DNA of 11,706 nucleotides from FCB group bacterium (GTDB taxonomy: Bacteria > Hydrogenedentota > Hydrogenedentia > Hydrogenedentales > SLHB01). Below are positions 44 through 9,801 of this stretch, one piece after another (the first letter of the stretch is position 1; each line of letters opens with the position of its first letter). The notes beneath the pieces were generated by a model, which saw nothing but the letters and a program-made list of their open reading frames with translations, was not told the origin of the DNA and did not search any database. The stretch lies in assembly GCA_034004565.1 (NCBI GenBank), contig JAVEWL010000099.1, positions 1 through 11,706 on the forward strand. Direction: 5' to 3'. Made by a program: the position numbers and the translations under genes.

Positions 44-1558
44 TTATCTTCCGGGCCAGTTTGTGATGGCTTCGACTAGGGAGGGGATGTCGTGGGTGGG
101 GGGTTCGATGGCGATGGGGATGCCGAGGTCTTCGGCGGTTTTTCGGGTGATGGGGCCGATGGCGGCGAAGGCGGTGGTTTGGGCGAGGGTGTGGAGGCGG
201 TCGGGGCCTACCATCTCGCAGAAGTTCTGGACCGTTGACGAGCTGGTGAAGGTGATGAGCTCGGGGTTGTATTTTACGAGGGCATCGGCGAGTTCGTTGG
301 AGGACTCGGGGCGCATGGTGCGGTAGGCGACGAGTTCTTTCACTTCGGCGCCGCGTTTGCGCAGCTCGACGGGGAGGAAGCTTCGGGCGATGTCGGCGCG
401 TGGGAGCAGGAAGCGTTTGCCTTCGAGGGGGCCTTCGGCTTTGACGAGGGCATCCAGGAGATCTTCGGCGACGTATTTCTCTGGGATGAGGTCGACACGC
501 AGGAAACGTTTGCGGATGGCCTCGGCGGTGGCGGTGCCGATGGCGCAGAGTTTCACGCCGGCAAGGTCGCGGCCGTCCTGGCCTAGGGCTTCCATGCGGT
601 CGAAGAGCATGTCGGCGCCGTTGACGCTGGTGACGATGACCCAGTCGTAGTCGCCGACATAGCCGAAGGGCTCGGGTTCGTCGGGCGGGGCGATCTGGAT
701 CGTGGGGAATTCGAAGATGTCGGCGCCGAGCGCGGCGAGGCGCTTGACGAGATCGCTGGCCTGGGCCTTGGCGCGCGTGACGACGATGCGGCGTCCGAAC
801 AGCGGGCGGCTTTCGAACCAGCTTATTTGATCGTGGAGGGAAACGACGTCGCCGACGACGGTAATGGACGGCGGCTGGACTTTTTCGGCCTCGCAGCGTT
901 CGACGATGTTGGCAAGGGTTCCGACGACGGTGCGCTGCTTGGGGTAGGTGCCCCATTCGATGACGGCCACGGGGGTTTCGGGCGCGCGGCCGAGTTCGAT
1001 GAGGCGGGCCGCGACGCGGGCGAGGCCTTTGACGGCCATATAAAGGACGAGGGTGCCGTTTGTGACGGTGCGCAGGGGATCGGGGATGCCCTGGGGACTG
1101 TCGGGGTCGCCGTGGGCGGTGATGAAGGCCACGCCGGCGGAGACGTTGCGGTGGGTGACGGGTATGCCCGCGTAGGCCGGTACGGCGATGCCGGCCGTGA
1201 CGCCGGGGACGACTTCGAAGGGGATGCCGTGCTGCGCGAGGAGGAGTGCCTCTTCCCCACCCCGGCCGAATACGAAGGGGTCGCCGCCTTTGAGCCGCAC
1301 GACGCGCGAGTAACGGCCGGACATCTCGACGAGGAGGCGGTTGATCTCTTCCTGGAGGAGCGTGTGGCGGTCGGTGGTCTTGCCGACGAACACCTTCTCC
1401 GCGTGCGGCGGACAGAATTCGAGGAGCGCCTCGTTCGCGAGGTAGTCGTAGATGACGACGTCGGCGTGTTCGAGGCACTCGCGTCCGCGCAGGGTCAACA
1501 GTCCCGGGTCACCGGGGCCCGCGCCGACGAGATAGACTTTTCCCTGGACGCGACTCAT
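44..1558 (-). CDS. cobA-hemD: Bifunctional uroporphyrinogen-III C-methyltransferase / uroporphyrinogen-III synthase (CobA/SUMT N-terminal domain fused to HemD C-terminal domain), 504 aa.
   Basis: The N-terminus has the SUMT hallmarks VYLVGAGPGDPGLLTLRG...ADVVIYD...RLKGGDPFVFGRGGEE. The C-terminal half matches the HemD fold (GRRIVVTRAKAQASDLVKRLAALGADIFEFPTIQI...). The start is chosen at MSRVQ (ATG 1556-1558) because it forms an ATGA overlap with the hemC stop. The 19 codons upstream in the ORF track overlap hemC and are unlikely to be translated. Confidence 0.85.
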   Translation of the reverse strand: MSRVQGKVYLVGAGPGDPGLLTLRGRECLEHADVVIYDYLANEALLEFCPPHAEKVFVGKTTDRHTLLQEEINRLLVEMSGRYSRVVRLKGGDPFVFGRGGEEALLLAQHGIPFEVVPGVTAGIAVPAYAGIPVTHRNVSAGVAFITAHGDPDSPQGIPDPLRTVTNGTLVLYMAVKGLARVAARLIELGRAPETPVAVIEWGTYPKQRTVVGTLANIVERCEAEKVQPPSITVVGDVVSLHDQISWFESRPLFGRRIVVTRAKAQASDLVKRLAALGADIFEFPTIQIAPPDEPEPFGYVGDYDWVIVTSVNGADMLFDRMEALGQDGRDLAGVKLCAIGTATAEAIRKRFLRVDLIPEKYVAEDLLDALVKAEGPLEGKRFLLPRADIARSFLPVELRKRGAEVKELVAYRTMRPESSNELADALVKYNPELITFTSSSTVQNFCEMVGPDRLHTLAQTTAFAAIGPITRKTAEDLGIPIAIEPPTHDIPSLVEAITNWPGR

Positions 1559-2475
1559 CGGATGGCCGCGATGATTTCGGCCGCTCCCTGCCGCAGGAGC
1601 TCGTCGGCGGCCCATTGGCCCAGGTCTTCCGGTTTCGCGGCGGGGGCCTCGATCTGTGTTTTGAGGAGCTTCATGCCGTCGAGGCTGGCGACGATGGCGG
1701 TGAGCACCATCATGTCGCCGTTCACGCGACCGAGCGCGCCGACGGGGACCTGGCAGCCGCCTTCGAGGACGGCGAGCAATGTGCGTTCGGCGCGGGTCTC
1801 GAGATCGGCGTTGTGGTCCGAGAGGCGCTGAAGCAGAGCCTTCAATTCATCGTCGTCCTCGCGGATCTCGATGCCGAGCGCGCCCTGGCCGACGGCGGAG
1901 ACCATGACCTCCGGTTCGATGACCTGGCGGATGACGTCGGCGTGGCCGAGGCGGTGGAGGCCCGCGCTGGCCATGATACCGGCGTTGGGCGAATCTTCTC
2001 TGATCTTGCGCACGCGCGTGTCGACATTGCCGCGCAGGTCGATAATGTTGAGATCGGGGCGCACGGCGCGGAGTTGCGCGGCGCGGCGCAGGCTCGATGT
2101 GCCTACGGTCGTGTCCGGCGGAAGCGCTTCGAGCGAATCCCATTTGAAGCATACCAGCGCGTCTCGCGGATCCTCGCGCGGCGGGACGGCGCCGAGGGCG
2201 AGGCCGTCGGGGAGCGTCGTGGGGAGATCCTTGAGGCTGTGAACCGCGAGGTCGGCGCGTTTTTCGAGCATGGCCACCTCGAGTTCCTTGGTGAAGAGGC
2301 CCTTGCCGCCGATGCGGGCGAGGGGCGCGTCGAGGATGCGGTCGCCCTTGGTCGAGACGATCTCGATGTCGACGGTGAGGCCGGGCTCGAGGGCGCGCAG
2401 GCGATCCGCGACCCAGTTGGACTGGGTGAGGGCGAGTTGACTGCCGCGCGATACGATGACGATACGGTTTCTCAT
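1555..2475 (-). CDS. hemC: Porphobilinogen deaminase (hydroxymethylbilane synthase), 306 aa.
   Basis: Strong HemC-like sequence throughout (MRNRIVIVSRGSQLALTQSNWV..., GGKGLFTKELE, dipyrromethane-cofactor Cys region LEGGCQVPVGALG). The start ATG 2473-2475 overlaps the hemA stop (ATGA) and the stop 1555-1557 overlaps the cobA-hemD start (ATGA). The long N-terminal extension in the 654-aa ORF is a GC-rich open frame overlapping hemA and is not coding. Confidence 0.9.
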   Translation of the reverse strand: MRNRIVIVSRGSQLALTQSNWVADRLRALEPGLTVDIEIVSTKGDRILDAPLARIGGKGLFTKELEVAMLEKRADLAVHSLKDLPTTLPDGLALGAVPPREDPRDALVCFKWDSLEALPPDTTVGTSSLRRAAQLRAVRPDLNIIDLRGNVDTRVRKIREDSPNAGIMASAGLHRLGHADVIRQVIEPEVMVSAVGQGALGIEIREDDDELKALLQRLSDHNADLETRAERTLLAVLEGGCQVPVGALGRVNGDMMVLTAIVASLDGMKLLKTQIEAPAAKPEDLGQWAADELLRQGAAEIIAAIR

Positions 2476-3746
2476 GGGGTTTCTTTCAGTCCGAATAAAC
2501 GTTTCACCAAGTGTAACACCGTGTGCGGGTCGTGGTGACCCATTTCGCGCTTGAGCTGGCTCATGGGGCGCTGGAGGATCGTGTTCACGATGCGCTTGGA
2601 CATGTACTCGATTTCTTCGCGTTGCTTGTCGGTAAGGTCCGGCATTGAGGAGAGCGTCTTCGCGAGTTCGCGTTCGCGGATGGTGTTGAGCTCCTGCGAC
2701 ATCTCGACGATGGTCGGTTCCGCTACGAGCGTGTGTACCCAATGCATGAACTGGGCCACACCCTCGTCGACGATCTCGATGCAGCGGTCGATTTCCTGGC
2801 GGCGCGCTTCCTTGTTCTGCTCGGCGACCTGCTGGAGGTCGTCCACGTCGTAGACGTAGACGTTGTCGAGATCGTTGACCGCGGGATCGACGTTGCGCGG
2901 GACGGCGATGTCGATAACGAACATCGGCTGCTGGGCGCGCTGTTTCAGGGCGTGGTGGAAGTGATCCGGGCGCAGGATGTAGCCGGGCGCGCCGGTGGAC
3001 GCAACGACGATATCGGCTCGGTGCAGGTGGTCTTCCATGACGTCGAGCGCGATGGCTTCGCCGCCGTGCATATCGGCCAGTTCCTGTGCCTTCTCGACGC
3101 TGCGGTTGACCATGAGCAGGTTTCCGGCACCCTTCGAGACGAGGGTTTTCAGGGTAAGCTCGCCCATCTTCCCGGAGCCGACGATCATGACCGTCTTGCC
3201 TTCGAGGTTCATGAAAATGGAGACGGCGAGGTCGACGGCCACGGAGCCGATGGAGACTTTGCCTTCGCTGATGGCGGTGTGCGTGCGCACGCTCTTCGAG
3301 ACCGAAAAAGCCTTCTGGAAGAGGGCGCTGATGATCTTGTCGGTGCTCTGTTCGGCCTGGGCGAGGAGGTAGGCGTCGTGGACCTGGCCGAGGACCTGGT
3401 TCTCCCCCACCACCATGCTGTCGAGACTGCACGCGACGCGGAACAGGTGGCCGACCGCCTCGTCTTCGGTGTATTCGTAGAGGTGATCGCGGAACTCGGT
3501 CTCCGGTATGCCGTGCCATTCGGAGAGGAACTTGCGCAGTTCGGCACAGAGCTCCAGGGGTTCGGTGGCGTAGCTCGCGTACAACTCGACGCGGTTGCAG
3601 GTGGACAGGATCACCGCCCCCACGCCGTCGAGCTGCTTGCGAAGGCGTTGCAGCGCATTCCGCGCCGCCTCGGGCGGGAAATGCAACCGCTCGCGAAGTT
3701 CGACGGGCCCGGTACGGTGATTCAGGCCTACAACGACGACACTCAT
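2472..3746 (-). CDS. hemA: Glutamyl-tRNA reductase, 424 aa.
   Basis: Typical HemA N-terminus MSVVVVGLNHRTGPVELRERL with the catalytic Cys region ILSTCNRVELY. It also has an NADPH-binding Rossmann motif (MIVGSGKMGELTLKTL) and a C-terminal dimerisation region. The start ATG 3744-3746 overlaps the upstream stop (ATGA). Confidence 0.9.
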   Translation of the reverse strand: MSVVVVGLNHRTGPVELRERLHFPPEAARNALQRLRKQLDGVGAVILSTCNRVELYASYATEPLELCAELRKFLSEWHGIPETEFRDHLYEYTEDEAVGHLFRVACSLDSMVVGENQVLGQVHDAYLLAQAEQSTDKIISALFQKAFSVSKSVRTHTAISEGKVSIGSVAVDLAVSIFMNLEGKTVMIVGSGKMGELTLKTLVSKGAGNLLMVNRSVEKAQELADMHGGEAIALDVMEDHLHRADIVVASTGAPGYILRPDHFHHALKQRAQQPMFVIDIAVPRNVDPAVNDLDNVYVYDVDDLQQVAEQNKEARRQEIDRCIEIVDEGVAQFMHWVHTLVAEPTIVEMSQELNTIRERELAKTLSSMPDLTDKQREEIEYMSKRIVNTILQRPMSQLKREMGHHDPHTVLHLVKRLFGLKETP

Positions 3747-4591
3747 TCGCCCATGCCCCAGAAATTGTAGTTGTTCAGTTGGCTCAGGCCGAGGATCAGG
3801 TGGGCGACGAGAAGCACGCCGAACCCGATGAAGACGAAATAGGCGAGCTTGGGTCCGCGCAGGCGGCCCAGGCGGCGTCCGTGGAACGCGGCGGAATAGA
3901 ACGTGGCCATGAGAAGGGCCATGATGATTTTCGGGGCCATCCACCAATTCGGGCCGAGCAGTTCGCTTTCGACATAGGCCCAGATGAAACCGAGGATGAG
4001 TGTGATGGCGAAGAGGGGATAGCCGATCTTGATCAGGCGGAACAGGATGCGGTCGAGTTGCTCGAGCGACGGTAGTTTCTGGAAGAGGCCCAGGGTCTGG
4101 CGGTGCTTGAGGCGATTGGCCTGGAAGACATAGGCCACGCTGGTGACGCTGGCGACGAAGAACAGGGCGTAGGCGAGAAAGGCGAGGCCTACGTGGACCG
4201 TGAGGAACAGGCCCTGGAGTTCGCGGGGCTCGTCGCGCAGGTAAATGTGCGCCACGGTGGCGTTGAGCAACGCGATGAGGGCCACCGGGGGAAGGTAGAA
4301 GCTCAGCAGCGAACCCATGCGCTCCTGTTTCGCCACGATGACCATGACGATGGTGCTCAGCAGCACGAAAAGATTCAGGGAATCGGTGACGTTCGTGAGG
4401 GGAAGGCGTTCCCATGCGGTGATGCGCAGGGCGAAGGTGACGAGGATGAGCACGGCGCCGGCCAGGGCGATCCCGTACGCGGCTTTGAGGAGGCGATCCT
4501 CCTGCCGACGCAGGTAGGCCGCAGCCACGATCGCCGCGACGGCGTAGAAGGCCACGCCGGCGTAGAACGTGAAATAAATGGCGCCCATCAT
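3743..4591 (-). CDS. HemX-like / CcsA-family (cytochrome c assembly protein family) polytopic membrane protein, 282 aa.
   Basis: About 8 hydrophobic helices and a Trp-rich segment (LLGPNWWMAPKII). It sits between sirC and hemA as an in-operon membrane protein, like hemX of Firmicutes hemAXCDBL. The start is chosen at MMGAIYF (ATG 4589-4591) to give an ATGA overlap with the sirC stop. The 58 upstream codons in the ORF track overlap sirC. The family call rests on composition and context, not on a search. Confidence 0.6.
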   Translation of the reverse strand: MMGAIYFTFYAGVAFYAVAAIVAAAYLRRQEDRLLKAAYGIALAGAVLILVTFALRITAWERLPLTNVTDSLNLFVLLSTIVMVIVAKQERMGSLLSFYLPPVALIALLNATVAHIYLRDEPRELQGLFLTVHVGLAFLAYALFFVASVTSVAYVFQANRLKHRQTLGLFQKLPSLEQLDRILFRLIKIGYPLFAITLILGFIWAYVESELLGPNWWMAPKIIMALLMATFYSAAFHGRRLGRLRGPKLAYFVFIGFGVLLVAHLILGLSQLNNYNFWGMGE

Positions 4592-5229
4592 GATCGTTCG
4601 TCCCCCGTGGCCAGTCCCGCCACTCGTTCGGATACCCAGGCTTCGCGTTCGGCGGGCGTAGCGCGTTTGAAGCGCTCGTAACCCTCGCGAGACGCGAATT
4701 CGGCGGCTATCCGTTCCCGCACGGCACGGTCCGTCGCGCGCTCCCGCACGCGCTCCCGCACCCATCCTAGAAAACCCACGTAATCGGCATAATCTTCCGG
4801 GAAAAGATCTTCGAGATCACGGCGAAGGCGTTTGGCCAGGGCCGGGGCCTCGCCTGCAGTCGATATGGCGATGGCGAGGGGGCCTCGGTCCAGGACCGAC
4901 GGTACGTGGAAGTCGCACAGGTCGGGCGCATCGACCACGTTGCAGAGGATGCCGTTCGCGCGGCAGGCTTCGGCCACGGCGCGATTGACGGCGGGGTCGT
5001 CGGTGGCCGCGACGGCGAGGAAGGCGCCGGCCATGTCGTTGGGCTCGAAGGGACGGTGACGGAGGACGGTGTTCTGCAGCGCTTCGAATTCGGGGAGGAA
5101 TTTCGGGCTTACGACGGTCAGGCGCGCGCCGGCGGAAAGCATGGGAAGTGCCTTGCCGAGGGCGATTTTTCCGCCGCCGACTATGAGGCAGGGTCTGCCT
5201 TCGAGTTTTATGAAGATGGGATATGTCAT
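4588..5229 (-). CDS. sirC: Precorrin-2 dehydrogenase / sirohydrochlorin ferrochelatase (siroheme synthase N-terminal-domain protein, SirC/Met8-like), 213 aa.
   Basis: N-terminal NAD-binding motif IFIKLEGRPCLIVGGGKIALGKALPMLSAGARLTVVSP is typical of the CysG N-domain / SirC family. The start is MTYPIF (ATG 5227-5229). The first 17 codons of the track ORF run into the intergenic region. Confidence 0.8.
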   Translation of the reverse strand: MTYPIFIKLEGRPCLIVGGGKIALGKALPMLSAGARLTVVSPKFLPEFEALQNTVLRHRPFEPNDMAGAFLAVAATDDPAVNRAVAEACRANGILCNVVDAPDLCDFHVPSVLDRGPLAIAISTAGEAPALAKRLRRDLEDLFPEDYADYVGFLGWVRERVRERATDRAVRERIAAEFASREGYERFKRATPAEREAWVSERVAGLATGDERS

Positions 5230-5268
5230 TTGGGCCCGGCGCCTATGCCTTTCCTTAACAGTGGAAAC

Positions 5269-5298
5269 AGCATACCGCATGGTTGGGATTGAAGCGAA
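5269..5298 (-). promoter_or_regulatory. Candidate sigma70-like promoter for the hem operon (minus-strand -35 TTCGCT, 18-nt spacer, -10 TATGCT).
   Basis: The plus-strand revcomp of 'agcgaa' (5293-5298) and 'agcata' (5269-5274) gives these hexamers. They lie in the 86-nt gap between the sirC start and the edge of the palindromic repeat. This is weak sequence-only evidence and no clear SD precedes the sirC ATG. Confidence 0.2.
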
Positions 5299-5334
5299 AT
5301 GGGCGGAGCCGGGGAGTAAAGATCACCACAAAGG

Positions 5335-5370
5335 CACGAAGACACAAAGAACCACGAAGACACAAAGAAC
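5335..5370. repeat. Perfect 18-nt tandem repeat x2 (cacgaagacacaaagaac) inside the left arm. The right arm carries one clean unit (5887-5904) plus a degenerate one, and the copy at 1-43 has one unit.
   Basis: Read directly from the sequence. The copy number varies between arms and copies, as in a minisatellite. Confidence 0.8.
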
Positions 5371-5586
5371 AGCAAGAGAAAGGCAACCACGAATGGGACG
5401 AATGGAACGAATCTGAGCCGGGGTAGCCCGAACGCGGAGGACTGTCCCCAACGGAAAACGGGGACTGTTCCACTTTTGGCAAGCGTCCAACTTCCTGCGA
5501 AGCCCACGGCTTGCCTTGGCCCAAACAGTCAAACGGTCCCGCTGACCAAAAGTGGAAACTGTCCCTGCTTTCCGGGAAGGGAATGG

Positions 5587-5613
5587 GTCTTATGAGTCTT
5601 ATAGGTCTTATGG
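5587..5613. repeat. 9-nt tandem repeat x3 (gtcttatga / gtcttatag / gtcttatgg) at the symmetry centre of the palindrome.
   Basis: Read directly. The local AT content is much higher than the ~65% GC surroundings. Confidence 0.75.
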
Positions 5614-5931
5614 GCACCTATTCCCGTTTTGGTCTATAGGGTTCATTTCGTTCATGGGGTCCATTGGTTTTGGCGGAAAGCGGGGACAGTTTCCACTTTT
5701 GATCGGTGGGGCTGATTGGCTGTATGGGCGGTTGCTGGGCTGTGGGCTTCGCAGGCAGTTGGACGCTTGCCAAAAGTGGAACAGTCCCCGTTTTCCGTTG
5801 GGGGCAGTTCTCCGCGTTTGGGCTACCCCCGCTCAGATTCGTTCCATTCGTCCCATTCGTGGTTGCATTTCCCGCTTTTCTTCGTGGTTCTTTGTGTCTT
5901 CGTGCCTTTGTGGTGATCTTCTGAATGAAAA

Positions 5932-5981: not shown

Positions 5982-7661
5982 TTAGGCTTGGGCGGTGGGG
6001 GTGATGGGGTCCGCCTTGGGTGTTTCGGGGACGGGGGTCAGGGTGCCGTTCTCGGTGAATTTCACGAGGGTTTCGGGGAGTTCGATGCCGCCGATGTCTT
6101 TCATGACCTGGAGCATGGGCGGCAGGGTGCGGGCGAAACCTTGCAGGAAGTTTGAGGTGACGCTGGTGCCGTTGTTGGCGCCGTTTTCCCAGACGATGAC
6201 CTTATCGAACTTGATGTTCGAGATGGCTTTCGCGGCGGTTTCGGCGAGGTTGTCGAGGTGCTCGAGCATGAGTAGCTTGAAGGCCTGGTCGGAGCCGCCG
6301 GCGGCTTTGATAATGGCGTGGAGGCCTTCGCCCTTCTTGGCGAGGATTTCGTATTGGCCTCGGGCCTCGGCTTCGAGCTTGGCGAAGATGGCGGACGCCT
6401 CGCCCTGAGCTTCGATGCGGCGGCGTTCGGCGTCGGCTTCGGCCTCGACGATGGTGCGGGCCTTGTCGGCCTTGGCGGGGGCTTCGACCTCGGCACGGCG
6501 CTCGGCTTCGACCTTCTCGGCCTCGGCCAATGCGGCACGGGCCAGTGCGTGGTTCTGGGCTTCGAGCACAGCGGCCTCGGCTTCGCGCTTGCGCGTCTCG
6601 CCCAACTGGTAGGCCTCGGCCTGCTTGACCTGGAGGGCGGCGGTGGAGGCGGCGACGCGCGCCTTGGCCTCGTTCTCGCCTTCGACGGCCAAGGCGTTGG
6701 CGCTGGACTGGCGCACGTTGAGTTGCGCGTTGGCGTCGGCGACGTGGGCCTGGGATTCGTTTTCGCCGGCGACGGCCTTGGCGTTGGCCTCGGCGATGGC
6801 GATACGCATCTTGCGCTCTTCTTCTTTGACTTGCGCGTCGCGGGCGTAGACGGCGGCCTGCTCGGCGACCTTCTGTTCGCGGTCGAGTTCGGCGATGCGG
6901 ACGGCCTGATCACGCTCGGCCTCGCGCATGCCGATTTCGCGCATCTTGCTGGCGCTGGCGACTTGCACGACCTTTTCGCGGTCGGCTTCGGCCACGCGGA
7001 CCTCGCCGAGCTTGACCTGCTCGGCCACGTCGCCGCGGGCCTGCTGGATGGCCTGCGAGGCGGCCTTTTGTCCGATAGCCTCGATGTAGCCTGAGGCGTC
7101 GGTGATATCGGTGATGTTCACGTTGATCAGCACGAGGCCGATCTTGCGCAACTCGGGTTCGACCGAGTTCTGGATGTTGGCGAGGAAGCTTTCGCGGTCG
7201 CGGTTGATGTCTTCGATGTGCATCATCGCGATGACCTGCCGGAGCTGCCCGAAGATGATGTCTTCGGCCTGCTTCTTGATCATGTGCGTGTCGAGGCCGA
7301 GCAAACGGATAGCGGCATTTTGCATGACTTCCGGCTCGGTGCCGATCGCGACGGTAAAGACGCTGGGCACGTTCACGCGGATGTTCTCGCTCGACAGCGC
7401 GTCCTTGAGCGGCACTTCGATCTGGATCGGTTCGAGGCTGAGGTAGGCGTAGTCCTGGATCAGCGGGATGACGAAGGAGGCGCCGCCGTGGATCGTGGTA
7501 CAGGATTTGCCGCCGCCCACTTTGCCGTAGACCACGAGGACCCGGTTGCTCGGGCAGCGCTTGTAGCGCTTGGCGAGGAGCAACACGAATCCGGTGAATA
7601 GCACCAGTACGATAACGGCAAGCATTACCGCGAATGGGTTGGCCATGATGCTGTTAGGCAT
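5982..7661 (-). CDS. floT: Flotillin-family protein (SPFH/band-7 domain, FloT/YuaG-like), 559 aa.
   Basis: An N-terminal TM helix (FAVMLAVIVLVLFTGFVLLLA) is followed by an SPFH domain and a long Ala/Glu-rich coiled-coil (EA repeat region). The C-terminal tail is as in long flotillins. A strong SD AGGGAGGAG lies ~10 nt upstream of ATG 7659-7661 and the gene is paired with an upstream NfeD. The symbol is by analogy to B. subtilis floT, not an orthology claim. Confidence 0.88.
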   Translation of the reverse strand: MPNSIMANPFAVMLAVIVLVLFTGFVLLLAKRYKRCPSNRVLVVYGKVGGGKSCTTIHGGASFVIPLIQDYAYLSLEPIQIEVPLKDALSSENIRVNVPSVFTVAIGTEPEVMQNAAIRLLGLDTHMIKKQAEDIIFGQLRQVIAMMHIEDINRDRESFLANIQNSVEPELRKIGLVLINVNITDITDASGYIEAIGQKAASQAIQQARGDVAEQVKLGEVRVAEADREKVVQVASASKMREIGMREAERDQAVRIAELDREQKVAEQAAVYARDAQVKEEERKMRIAIAEANAKAVAGENESQAHVADANAQLNVRQSSANALAVEGENEAKARVAASTAALQVKQAEAYQLGETRKREAEAAVLEAQNHALARAALAEAEKVEAERRAEVEAPAKADKARTIVEAEADAERRRIEAQGEASAIFAKLEAEARGQYEILAKKGEGLHAIIKAAGGSDQAFKLLMLEHLDNLAETAAKAISNIKFDKVIVWENGANNGTSVTSNFLQGFARTLPPMLQVMKDIGGIELPETLVKFTENGTLTPVPETPKADPITPTAQA

Positions 7662-8250
7662 GAATCGGGGTCTCCTCCCTTACGCACTCCACTTCCACCG
7701 TGTTGGGGCCTACGATGCCCACAACAACCACGGGCACGCCCGTGGGTATGCTTTCCTTCGAGGTGGTGACGGCCTGGCATTCGACGGTACGGCTTTGCAG
7801 GTTGAGAAAAACCTTGCCTGCGCCCGCGTGGCCGGCGGGTACGGTGAGGTAGACCGTGCCCTGGTGTCCGACGGCGCGCTCGATGTGGACCGTGCCGTCG
7901 TCGCGCAGGCCCATCATGAATCGCATGACCCAGGCGACGGCGAAGAGGGCCACCGCTCCCGCGGCCAAGGCCATCAAGATGGTGGTGGCGTCGGACACGC
8001 CGGCGGTTTTCGCGGACAGGCCCGTGAGGCCGAAGATGGCCAGCGCGGCCGTGACGGTGCGGAAACTGAGTACGCTGAAGAAGTGAGAGCCTTCGCCGTG
8101 GTCGACGTGATCCGTGTCGACGTGGACGTCGCCTCCGAGGTCGTGGACCTCGCCGTCGAAGTCGTGGCCCATTCCGGTGAGGGTCATCACGAATTGCACG
8201 AGCACGATGACTGACCCCACGATGGCGCACACCATGAAGATCGCGGTCAT
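7654..8250 (-). CDS. NfeD-family membrane protein (short YuaF-like form), ~198 aa, partner of flotillin.
   Basis: Three TM helices precede a C-terminal OB-fold-like beta region (GTVYLTVPAGHAGAGKVFLNLQSRTVECQAVTT...VVVVGIVGPNTVEVECV). It overlaps the flotillin start by 8 nt. The start is chosen at MTAIF (ATG 8248-8250), which has GGGGAG 9 nt upstream. ATG 8257-8259 is an alternative start. The 227-aa track ORF has an unlikely N-terminal extension. Confidence 0.8.
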   Translation of the reverse strand: MTAIFMVCAIVGSVIVLVQFVMTLTGMGHDFDGEVHDLGGDVHVDTDHVDHGEGSHFFSVLSFRTVTAALAIFGLTGLSAKTAGVSDATTILMALAAGAVALFAVAWVMRFMMGLRDDGTVHIERAVGHQGTVYLTVPAGHAGAGKVFLNLQSRTVECQAVTTSKESIPTGVPVVVVGIVGPNTVEVECVREETPIHA

Positions 8251-8505
8251 AGATGCCATCTCCCCTGTCTGCCGTCGCAGAAACCGGACGCCGCAAACGC
8301 TGCACGCCTTGGGTCCTGGCGAACACGCAGCCAACACGAGTATCAGTGTAAACCATTTGCGGGGAAATTGGCAGTCGGTTGGGTCAACGCTCCGGGCGGT
8401 TTCGAGCGCGGAACAGAAGGAACCGTTTTGCGGCTCCGAGTATAGTAGGCAACGTCCGGCACAGACGCAGAATACGCAAAGGTTTGTTTTTTGGGGGGAT
8501 TCTCG
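8251..8505. promoter_or_regulatory. Divergent intergenic/promoter region between the NfeD-flotillin operon (-) and the ICMT-DUF218 gene (+).
   Basis: A 255-bp non-coding gap lies between two divergently oriented starts. No specific -35/-10 elements could be assigned with confidence. Confidence 0.3.
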
Positions 8506-9666
8506 ATGGCGGTGCTGCTATTTCGCGTGGTGCCGGGGTTGTTCTTTCTGTTGTACCTGATCCTGCTGGCGGTTCAGGGGGCGCGCTGGTCCGTTTGTGC
8601 TCGTATTCTAACTTGCTCGGGGTGGCGCGATCGCGTGGCGTGCGGACTGTTTGCGCTGGGGCACGTTCCGGCGGCGTTGTACTTCAGCGGCCGGACGCTG
8701 GATCCGTTCTATGTGCACGTTCCGGTGGTGCTGCGCATGGGCGGACTCGCGCTGTACATGCTGGGGATGGTGCTGCTGCTCTGGGCGTACGTGACGCTCG
8801 GCAGGAACTGGTCGCCGCTGCTTGAAATCCGGAAGGGACATACCCTCACCACGTTCGGGCCGTACCGCTACGTGCGGCATCCGATGTACATCGCGCTTGG
8901 GGGGATTGGACTCGGCATGCTGGTTTTGTCCGCGAATGCGCTGGTGGGGCCTGCCTTCCTTATTACGTACGTTTTCCGGGTCTTTCGTGTCGGCGCCGAA
9001 GAGGACATGCTCCGGGATCATTTCGGCGGTGACTTTCAGGCGTACGTGGGACGGACGGACCGTTTCGTTCCGCGCGTTGTGAGCAGGATCGCCGGGAGAC
9101 GCTGGGCCCGCGCAACAGCGGCAATGGTATTGGCGGCCCTGCTCCTGGGTTGTGGAGCGATTGTACGAGCGGGTCTTTCGGACGAGATTCAGAAGGCGGA
9201 TGTGGCGGTCGTGCTGGGGTGTCGTGTGTATACCAATGGCGAGCCCGGCCACTCGTTGAAATCCCGGCTCAACGCGACCGTTCGCCTGTACCGCCAGGGA
9301 TGGTTTCCGGAGATTGTCGTGAGCGGTGGAATGGGCCGCAACAATCAGGATGAAGCGACCATCATGCGGCGCTACCTTGTCGCGCACGGCGTCCCGGCCG
9401 AGCGCATTCACACCGACAGCGAGGGCGTGAACACGCGCGCCACGGCCTTGCACGCGGCCGAGTTCCTGCGGCGGCGCGGCCTGAAGAGCGCCATGGTCAT
9501 CACGCAGTTCTACCACGTGCCGCGTGCGCAGATGGCCTTGCGCGAGGCGGGCGTCAAGACCGTGTATGGCGCGCACGCACGGTATTTCTCGTGGCACGAT
9601 GCCTATGCGGTTCCGCGCGAGTTGGCGGCGATTCTGTGGTACCGCCTGCGCGAGGCCGTGGCGTAG
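8506..9666 (+). CDS. Fusion membrane protein with an N-terminal isoprenylcysteine carboxyl methyltransferase (ICMT)/phospholipid-methyltransferase-like domain and a C-terminal DUF218 (YdcF/SanA/ElyC-like) domain, ~386 aa.
   Basis: The ICMT-family signature is ...LTTFGPYRYVRHPMYIALGG...EEDMLRDHFGGDFQAYVGRTDRFVP. An extra TM helix precedes a DUF218 signature (AVVLGCRV...LKSRLNATVRLYRQGWFPEIVVSGGMG...DEATIMRRYLVAHGVPAERIHTDSEGVNTRATA...MVITQFYHVPRAQMAL). The start is taken at ATG 8506 (MAVLLF), preceded by a GGGGGG run. The track's 8491 start is a TTG and would add 5 aa. Confidence 0.8.
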   Translation: MAVLLFRVVPGLFFLLYLILLAVQGARWSVCARILTCSGWRDRVACGLFALGHVPAALYFSGRTLDPFYVHVPVVLRMGGLALYMLGMVLLLWAYVTLGRNWSPLLEIRKGHTLTTFGPYRYVRHPMYIALGGIGLGMLVLSANALVGPAFLITYVFRVFRVGAEEDMLRDHFGGDFQAYVGRTDRFVPRVVSRIAGRRWARATAAMVLAALLLGCGAIVRAGLSDEIQKADVAVVLGCRVYTNGEPGHSLKSRLNATVRLYRQGWFPEIVVSGGMGRNNQDEATIMRRYLVAHGVPAERIHTDSEGVNTRATALHAAEFLRRRGLKSAMVITQFYHVPRAQMALREAGVKTVYGAHARYFSWHDAYAVPRELAAILWYRLREAVA

Positions 9667-9779: not shown

Positions 9780-9801
9780 CCCCTCTCCCCAGGGAGAGGG
9801 G
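9780..9801. other. Stable GC-rich hairpin (9-bp stem cccctctcc / ggagagggg, loop ccag) in the convergent intergenic region. A related imperfect hairpin lies at ~9853-9890.
   Basis: Read directly. No U-tract follows on either strand, so this is not a canonical intrinsic terminator. It may be a REP-like element or an mRNA 3'-end stabiliser. Confidence 0.3.

Follow-up and report, generated by a model that had tools for sequence, protein, structure and literature searches.

The question raised by contig JAVEWL010000099.1, whose entire 11,706 bp were analysed here as the window, is whether a methyltransferase of the ICMT type and a DUF218 domain of the SanA type are truly carried by one polypeptide, and if so whether they act together or with the flotillin genes encoded divergently beside them. 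The gene in question lies at 8506..9666 on the plus strand and comprises 386 codons followed by a TAG stop (9664-9666). Its product is identical to NCBI entry MDX9972709.1, labelled 'ElyC/SanA/YdcF family protein' and assigned to an FCB group bacterium metagenome-assembled genome (MAG), and the IMG name of the protein carries two COG labels, Ste14 and SanA. Judged by sequence comparison, the fusion is genuine: it is an end-to-end union of two complete inner-membrane proteins and is restricted to one lineage.

A single frame across two membrane proteins

An open reading frame scan of the window showed a frame that spans 8491..9666(+) and that from ATG 8506 contains zero internal stops. The choice of ATG 8506 as the start is backed by the N-terminus MAVL(L/V/A)FR, common to all three fusion homologs, and by a G-rich stretch, GGGGGGA, that begins ~12 nucleotides (nt) 5' of the ATG. 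The same uninterrupted frame crosses the junction in NCBI, Logan and Joint Genome Institute (JGI) assemblies, at identities of 100, 84 and 53%. Homologs that read through were found at 84% identity on the Logan contig L004 (protein P0002) and at 53% identity in JGI assemblies of four samples (P0003); of the JGI contigs, three (L001-L003) were read here. A single one-residue indel separates the fusion homologs; it is located in the ICMT half, and none occurs at the junction. The proposal of the first-pass annotation, made from the letters of the window, that one polypeptide is encoded in a single frame was thus confirmed, with 386 codons, no internal stop and homologs that read through. That an assembly, frameshift or gene-calling error merged two separate genes has a negligible probability: only the rarity of the architecture speaks for such an artefact, and against it stand five independent contigs from three data sources with the same open frame, a junction conserved in length and sequence, and a GC content of 64% for the gene and 63% for the window.

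The earlier reading of the protein as an ICMT-like methyltransferase fused to DUF218 came with a proposal to scan for the domains, and the Pfam scan supports both. ICMT (PF04140) matches residues 81-169 with 55.4 bits (gathering cut-off 24), PEMT (PF04191) matches residues 78-174 with 42.5 bits (cut-off 25), and DUF218 (PF02698) matches residues 232-362 with 95.2 bits (cut-off 27.6).

The N-terminal half (8506..9081, plus strand; residues 1-192) is a membrane methyltransferase module of the ICMT type, dependent on S-adenosylmethionine (SAM), with five transmembrane (TM) helices, and is complete in comparison with Ma-ICMT. A profile built from the three fusions aligned residues 10-192 to residues 10-194 of the 194-residue Ma-ICMT structure 4A2N (E 2.4e-25), and the alignment reaches the final residues, RFVPRVV in the window protein and RLFPKVV in 4A2N. 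Because the match extends to the last residues, the N-terminal half is a complete ICMT-type protein and no fragment; the five-helix fold with its C-terminal cofactor subdomain is complete.

Two motifs mark the putative active site of this half. The RHPMY motif (R124-Y128; 8875..8889, plus strand) contains a His that is a SAM contact by correspondence with RhlM, Ma-ICMT and Tc-ICMT, and the EE motif (E165-E166; 8998..9003, plus strand), in the C-terminal catalytic subdomain, is conserved in stand-alone homologs. The SAM contacts described for the three enzymes named include the His and a Glu from these motifs (PMC11069360). The R, H, P and Y of RHPxY are invariant in 10 stand-alone homologs and are retained in the window protein and P0002. 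On a balanced 25-sequence alignment, the window protein holds 30 of the 37 family-conserved ICMT columns (30-31 for it and P0002), including the whole GPYRxVRHPMY block and EE. Since all motifs of the SAM site are intact, the methyltransferase half of the window protein is probably still active. P0003 reads REPLA for RHPMY and DE for EE, and further conserved ICMT residues are gone from it.

The N-terminal half therefore resembles Ma-ICMT and RhlM, an enzyme that methylates rhamnolipid (PMC11069360), in its length of ~190 residues, its five TM helices, its end-to-end alignment and its RHPxY and EE motifs. Stand-alone ICMT homologs terminate at ...TGRLxPR, exactly where the linker of the fusion starts, whereas the fusion protein runs on into another TM helix and a predicted periplasmic domain. 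A published sequence-similarity network of the ICMT family left out proteins longer than 330 residues (PMC11069360), and the fusion architecture would therefore have escaped it.

The junction (9082..9180, plus strand; residues 193-225) consists of an Arg-rich linker, SRIAGRRWARA, predicted to be cytoplasmic, and a sixth TM helix (TM6, residues ~200-222, nt 9103-9171). The TM6 region is the counterpart of the signal-anchor at the N-terminus of stand-alone SanA-type proteins, which align from residue ~197 onward. It is followed by a SanA-type DUF218 domain (9181..9663, plus strand; residues 226-386), predicted to be periplasmic, with a YdcF-like alpha/beta fold. Residues L237, G238, R254, T310, H337, R340 and E372 are the equivalents of SanA L51, G52, R69, T125, H149, R152 and E182, and all seven are invariant in the three fusions (T310 is encoded at 9433-9435, H337 at 9514-9516 and E372 at 9619-9621). 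In SanA, T125, H149 and E182 are essential and form a putative Thr/His/Glu catalytic triad (PMC12176290); its function also depends on L51, G52, R69 and R152, which belong to a pocket facing the membrane (bioRxiv 10.1101/2025.06.10.658892). The columns conserved among stand-alone relatives of this half are retained at 32 of 34 positions in the window protein and at all 34 in P0003; the identity to Escherichia coli SanA is ~23%.

An inner-membrane anchor with a periplasmic DUF218 domain has been reported for SanA, ElyC and YgjQ, and SanA sent to the periplasm is still functional (PMC12176290). The C-terminal half of the fusion resembles SanA in its predicted single signal-anchor helix followed by DUF218 and contains every reported essential SanA residue. 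It differs from SanA, a protein of Enterobacterales, in the absence of the C-terminal tail, in the whole methyltransferase that precedes its anchor, and in its origin from an FCB-group (possibly Hydrogenedentota-like) MAG. YdcF, by contrast, is cytoplasmic and soluble, and its structure (3CA8) binds SAM; ElyC spans the membrane with two TM helices and lacks an enzymatic domain at its N-terminus.

Hydropathy analysis placed hydrophobic segments at residues ~5-27, 42-62, 72-97, 127-160 (a hairpin) and 200-222 to 226. Loops 26-44, 98-127 and 160-201 contain 4, 5 and 8 Lys or Arg residues, and loop 62-72 contains 1. An AlphaFold2 model has helices at 2-29, 40-61, 74-98, 121-142 and 147-173, TM6 at 198-224 and then an alpha/beta domain; the arrangement of four to five TM helices, a TM linker and DUF218 proposed earlier agrees with both hydropathy and the model. 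In the ICMT family the cofactor pocket and the C-terminus face the cytoplasm. Both the positive-inside rule and the need of the cofactor pocket for access to cytoplasmic SAM predict a cytoplasmic C-terminus for the ICMT half, and with this end inside, crossing of the membrane by TM6 would put DUF218 outside. The predicted topology gives the methyltransferase site a cytoplasmic and DUF218 a periplasmic location, which is the answer given by hydropathy and charge bias to the question, posed in the first-pass annotation, whether DUF218 is periplasmic. The two putative active sites are predicted to lie on opposite faces of the inner membrane.

Rarity and stand-alone relatives

The fusion is extremely rare, being found in three sequences from one small lineage, and this answers the question of how widespread it is. 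A word-indexed search of 5.8 billion clusters yielded only three proteins with both domains, at 100, 84 and 53% identity. A second word-indexed search of these clusters, with a 25-sequence profile, recovered the same three fusions, and its 68 other matches are single-domain proteins. An exhaustive HMMER profile search covered 1.84 billion representatives and returned 37,346 matches; among the best 150 of these, one spans both halves, and it is the representative of the fusion cluster itself, divergent independent fusions below ~135 bits in total falling outside the matches listed.

The closest stand-alone relatives, of ~200 residues, match either residues 5-191 or residues ~197-383, and the latter group includes the TM anchor. 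Because these best relatives match either half whole, the fusion is an end-to-end one, and the single-domain relatives bear out the earlier statement that the two domains are normally separate proteins.

No fusion was found among 26 related loci in GTDB species-representative genomes, all of which match the DUF218 half only, nor among 126 plasmid records, which also match the DUF218 half only, none covering at least 80% of the query. A metagenome scan with the ICMT half gave two weak, irrelevant matches; the same scan missed the JGI contigs of P0003. Within 10 kb of the 26 stand-alone DUF218 loci there is no gene for ICMT, flotillin or NfeD, and in ~30 other loci an ICMT gene never lies beside a DUF218 gene. 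A pre-fusion state, with stand-alone ICMT and DUF218 genes adjacent to each other, was sought in the 26 genome loci and occurs in none of them. The contigs of the closest stand-alone proteins (P0095, P0016, P0004 and P0285) are too short or have no ICMT-DUF218 adjacency.

Among stand-alone DUF218 proteins whose surroundings could be read, the closest is P0285, 50% identical to the C-terminal half (L043:4302-8588, also L044). Its gene sits 107 bp downstream of a SahR-like gene, which encodes an ArsR-type helix-turn-helix and a methyltransferase domain and is itself transcribed divergently from metK and ahcY. Here, independently of the fusion, a member of this DUF218 subfamily again lies next to SAM-related genes. 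A link between DUF218 and genes of the SAM cycle was considered and dropped, as the P0285 context is absent from the other loci searched.

DUF218 also occurs behind polytopic membrane domains that carry no annotation, in P0006 (348 residues), P0007 (338 residues) and P0079 (416 residues), and a SanA-like DUF218 is found behind a CitX domain (P0084) and behind HEAT repeats (P0014). We considered the polytopic N-terminal domains of P0006 and P0079 as cryptic ICMT domains and rejected this, the hhalign probability being at most 2%. A stretch of P0006, 'TLGRGWIPLS', resembles 'TLGRNWSPLL' of ICMT, with an hhalign probability of only 2%. Across these sequences, the ICMT fusion fits a general theme in which a variable membrane partner is joined to DUF218.

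The fusion architecture is described nowhere in the literature searched. The domain architecture is new and is built from two known families, and automated annotation already displays both domains.

Selection and the roles of the two halves

To compare the two halves, we calculated the ratio of nonsynonymous to synonymous substitution rates (dN/dS) between the window and L004. This analysis gave 0.31 for the ICMT half, 0.16 for the linker and TM6, and 0.08 for DUF218. The identities between the window protein and P0003 are 46% in the ICMT half, 33% in the linker and 66% in DUF218. These values indicate that both halves are under purifying selection and that DUF218 is the strongly constrained core. 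As seen in P0003, the methyltransferase half can decay, and at least one descendant lineage can do without it.

We lean, with modest confidence, towards the interpretation that the protein combines independent modules, in which SanA-like control of envelope precursors by DUF218 would be the core function and lipid methylation by the ICMT half would be added to it. SanA influences lipid II availability and restrains the use of peptidoglycan precursors. By analogy, the DUF218 half may bind or enzymatically alter a lipid-linked envelope precursor at the inner membrane, restraining flux. For the ICMT half, the substrate would be a membrane amphiphile, methylated at the cytoplasmic leaflet in the way that RhlM methylates rhamnolipid, and this acceptor would enter the methyltransferase from the inner leaflet. 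The C-terminus of ICMT and the N-terminus of SanA, both predicted to be cytoplasmic, would be joined at the basic stub before the signal-anchor TM6, and because both termini lie on that side, the fusion would need no topological rearrangement. The sequence comparisons establish which domains are present and that they are complete, how rare the fusion is, how selection acts on it and that the flotillin neighbourhood is not conserved, and the topology is predicted; the substrates and any functional coupling of the halves are the parts that we infer.

Several points weigh against this interpretation. The topology on which it depends is derived from hydropathy, charge bias and homology. The NCBIfam model for protein-S-isoprenylcysteine O-methyltransferase (NF040696) scores 108 bits, below its cut-off of 160, and the N-terminal half is accordingly placed in the ICMT family and not assigned as an isoprenylcysteine methyltransferase. 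The equivalog models for SanA (31.2 vs 363 bits) and ElyC (23.8 vs 205) were missed as well; since all NCBIfam equivalog cut-offs were missed, function was transferred at the family level only. In addition, that the fusion persists in a homolog as distant as 53% identity might reflect a tighter coupling of the halves than the interpretation assumes; conversely, the degenerate motifs of P0003 might indicate a methyltransferase half that acts as an anchor only.

The first of these possibilities is that of a coupled two-step enzyme, in which both halves work on the same lipid-linked molecule. For example, ICMT might methylate the carboxylate or phosphate of a polyprenyl-linked or glycolipid intermediate on the cytoplasmic leaflet, which DUF218 would recognise, hydrolyse or transfer on the periplasmic leaflet after flipping. 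The first-pass annotation had suggested coupled lipid-modifying chemistry of this kind. It would agree with the retention of the fusion to 53% identity with one single-residue indel, with purifying selection on both halves, with the putative Thr/His/Glu triad of DUF218, and with the fact that both families handle membrane amphiphiles, rhamnolipid in the case of RhlM and, for SanA, a membrane-facing pocket and an effect on lipid II availability. However, the predicted topology puts the membrane between the two active sites, and direct coupled chemistry is therefore not supported. Moreover, the SAM-contacting His, the Tyr of RHPxY and one Glu are missing from P0003, although all its conserved DUF218 columns are retained; in neither the 26 genome loci nor the further contexts inspected does an ICMT gene adjoin a DUF218 gene; and the fusion is confined to one small lineage. 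We therefore regard a coupled enzyme as unlikely. Similarly improbable, in our judgement, is that the ICMT half serves as an enlarged membrane anchor or a regulatory pseudoenzyme without methyl transfer. The roughly four-fold higher dN/dS of the N-terminal half, its lower identity to P0003 and the degenerate motifs of the latter are in line with such a role, as is the presence of polytopic N-terminal domains unrelated to ICMT in P0006, P0007 and P0079. Yet the window protein and P0002 hold most of the conserved ICMT columns, with GPYRxVRHPMY and EE among them, and a dN/dS of 0.31 still denotes purifying selection.

A further possibility, which we regard as a long shot, takes the fusion as a Rosetta stone: SanA-type DUF218 enzymes and a subset of bacterial ICMTs would share an isoprenoid-linked envelope carrier, whose phosphate or carboxylate ICMT would cap with a methyl group at the cytoplasmic leaflet and whose cap the Thr/His/Glu site of DUF218 would read or remove at the periplasmic leaflet. 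If true, the availability of the carrier lipid or of lipid II would be controlled through methylation in a way not known before. Two studies of 2025-2026 reach no further than SanA probably binding or modifying an inner-membrane molecule. Set beside them, a natural ICMT-DUF218 fusion is a testable hint at related membrane-lipid pathways and a compact construct for complementation and lipidomics. The hint is a weak one, coming from three sequences of one uncultured lineage, with the active sites predicted on opposite faces and a decaying methyltransferase in one member.

The flotillin neighbourhood and the rest of the contig

Upstream of the fusion gene and divergent from it is an NfeD/YqiJ-like gene (7654-8250, minus strand), whose start, ATG 8250, is conserved in five relatives, followed by a flotillin/SPFH gene (5982-7661, minus strand; Band_7, 97.9 bits). 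With the NfeD-like start at 8250 and the fusion start at 8506, the divergent spacer (8251..8505) is 255 bp long, exactly the length given in the first-pass annotation. The NfeD-like and flotillin genes overlap by 8 nt (7654-7661), and the same overlap is found in L036, L039 and L045, which suggests translational coupling of the two genes. The NfeD-like protein has no Pfam match above threshold (YqiJ_N, 19.8 bits vs 23).

In comparison with NfeD-flotillin operons of the YqiJ/YqiK and NfeD2/FloT types, the overlapping pair of the window is typical, but the fusion gene is neither a conserved member nor a conserved neighbour. The NfeD-flotillin pair is kept in all relatives examined and the gene upstream of NfeD varies. 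The divergent arrangement with the fusion gene was seen only in the window and L004. In five relatives, whose NfeD identities are 61-71% and whose contigs extend 0.45-8 kb upstream, the place of the fusion gene is empty or taken by other genes. One of them, the 90-kb contig L036, is syntenic with the window over seven genes at 60-90% identity (NfeD 71%, flotillin 90%, sirC 72%, ccsA-like 76%, hemA 60%, hemC 79% and cobA-hemD 87%), and upstream of NfeD it carries a Metallophos-like gene, gyrA and gyrB and no fusion gene. The metagenome of L036 does contain the 53% fusion homolog, on a separate contig beside DUF1559, TetR and oxidoreductase genes. L039-41, L045-47, L048 and L049, with NfeD proteins 61-66% identical, are also without a fusion gene beside NfeD.

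The spacer sequence is conserved with L004 only, and not with L036, L039 or L042. A scan of the 255 bp for promoters of the sigma-70-like type found none, and an Rfam scan of the window, spacer included, matched no family. A clean insertion of the fusion gene between conserved flanks was considered and rejected, as the 599-residue CehA/McbA-like protein of the window and the 596-residue Metallophos-like protein of L036 show no similarity.

From the shared spacer, the first-pass annotation had proposed a co-regulated membrane microdomain or envelope module and had asked whether the fusion recurs beside flotillin genes. It does so only in the 84% relative L004, and this adjacency is weak evidence because the NfeD protein of L004 is 92.5% identical and the lineage is essentially the same. 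Against the divergent adjacency in these two contigs stand the five relatives that lack it, among them the syntenic L036 with its fusion homolog elsewhere, as well as the stand-alone DUF218 loci without flotillin or NfeD genes nearby and the spacer scan without a promoter-like site. That the fusion protein belongs to a flotillin/NfeD module and is co-regulated with it from the 255-bp region is thus very improbable, and the flotillin connection, the more striking claim, fails. Comparison of the loci indicates that the place of the fusion gene beside the NfeD-flotillin pair is a recent local arrangement and not a functional module.

The NfeD-like protein contains a His/Asp-rich segment, HDFDGEVHDLGGDVHVDTDHVDHGEGSH, right after its first TM helix (window 8080-8172, minus strand), which suggests metal binding. 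Its best named relative is from a Hydrogenedentes MAG (52% identity), which makes the 'FCB group' label compatible with Hydrogenedentota, but many relatives are from Planctomycetota MAGs.

Beyond the flotillin gene, window 44-5280 (minus strand) encodes a haem/sirohaem cluster consisting of a cobA-hemD fusion, hemC, hemA, a ccsA/HemX-like cytochrome c assembly gene and sirC, and the order of the cluster is the same in L036. The 700-bp gap between sirC and the flotillin gene holds a nested inverted repeat of ~600 nt (window 5317-5920). Its arms pair at 5319-5360/5879-5920 (42 nt, 100% complementary), 5378-5510/5739-5871 (133 nt, 95%) and 5519-5574/5674-5729 (56 nt, 84%). The outer 34-nt motif of the repeat, GTTCTTTG.GTCTT.GTG.CTTTGTGGTGATCTT, reappears at the contig end (11-46), and L036 carries a PPK2 gene (L036:10343-11113) in the position of the repeat. 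The inverted repeat could be an element similar to a miniature inverted-repeat transposable element, or a hairpin element, that replaced PPK2, or it could be an assembly artefact.

A GC-rich palindrome, CTCTCCCCAGGGAGAGGG, is located at window 9781-9800, inside the 237-bp spacer downstream of the fusion gene, where ~0.01 chance matches are expected for it. In three independent assemblies the contigs of the 53% homolog stop at the identical 18-mer (L002:1-18), ~250 bp upstream of the homolog's gene. The palindrome is probably a dispersed repeat, similar to repetitive extragenic palindromic elements, that breaks assemblies.

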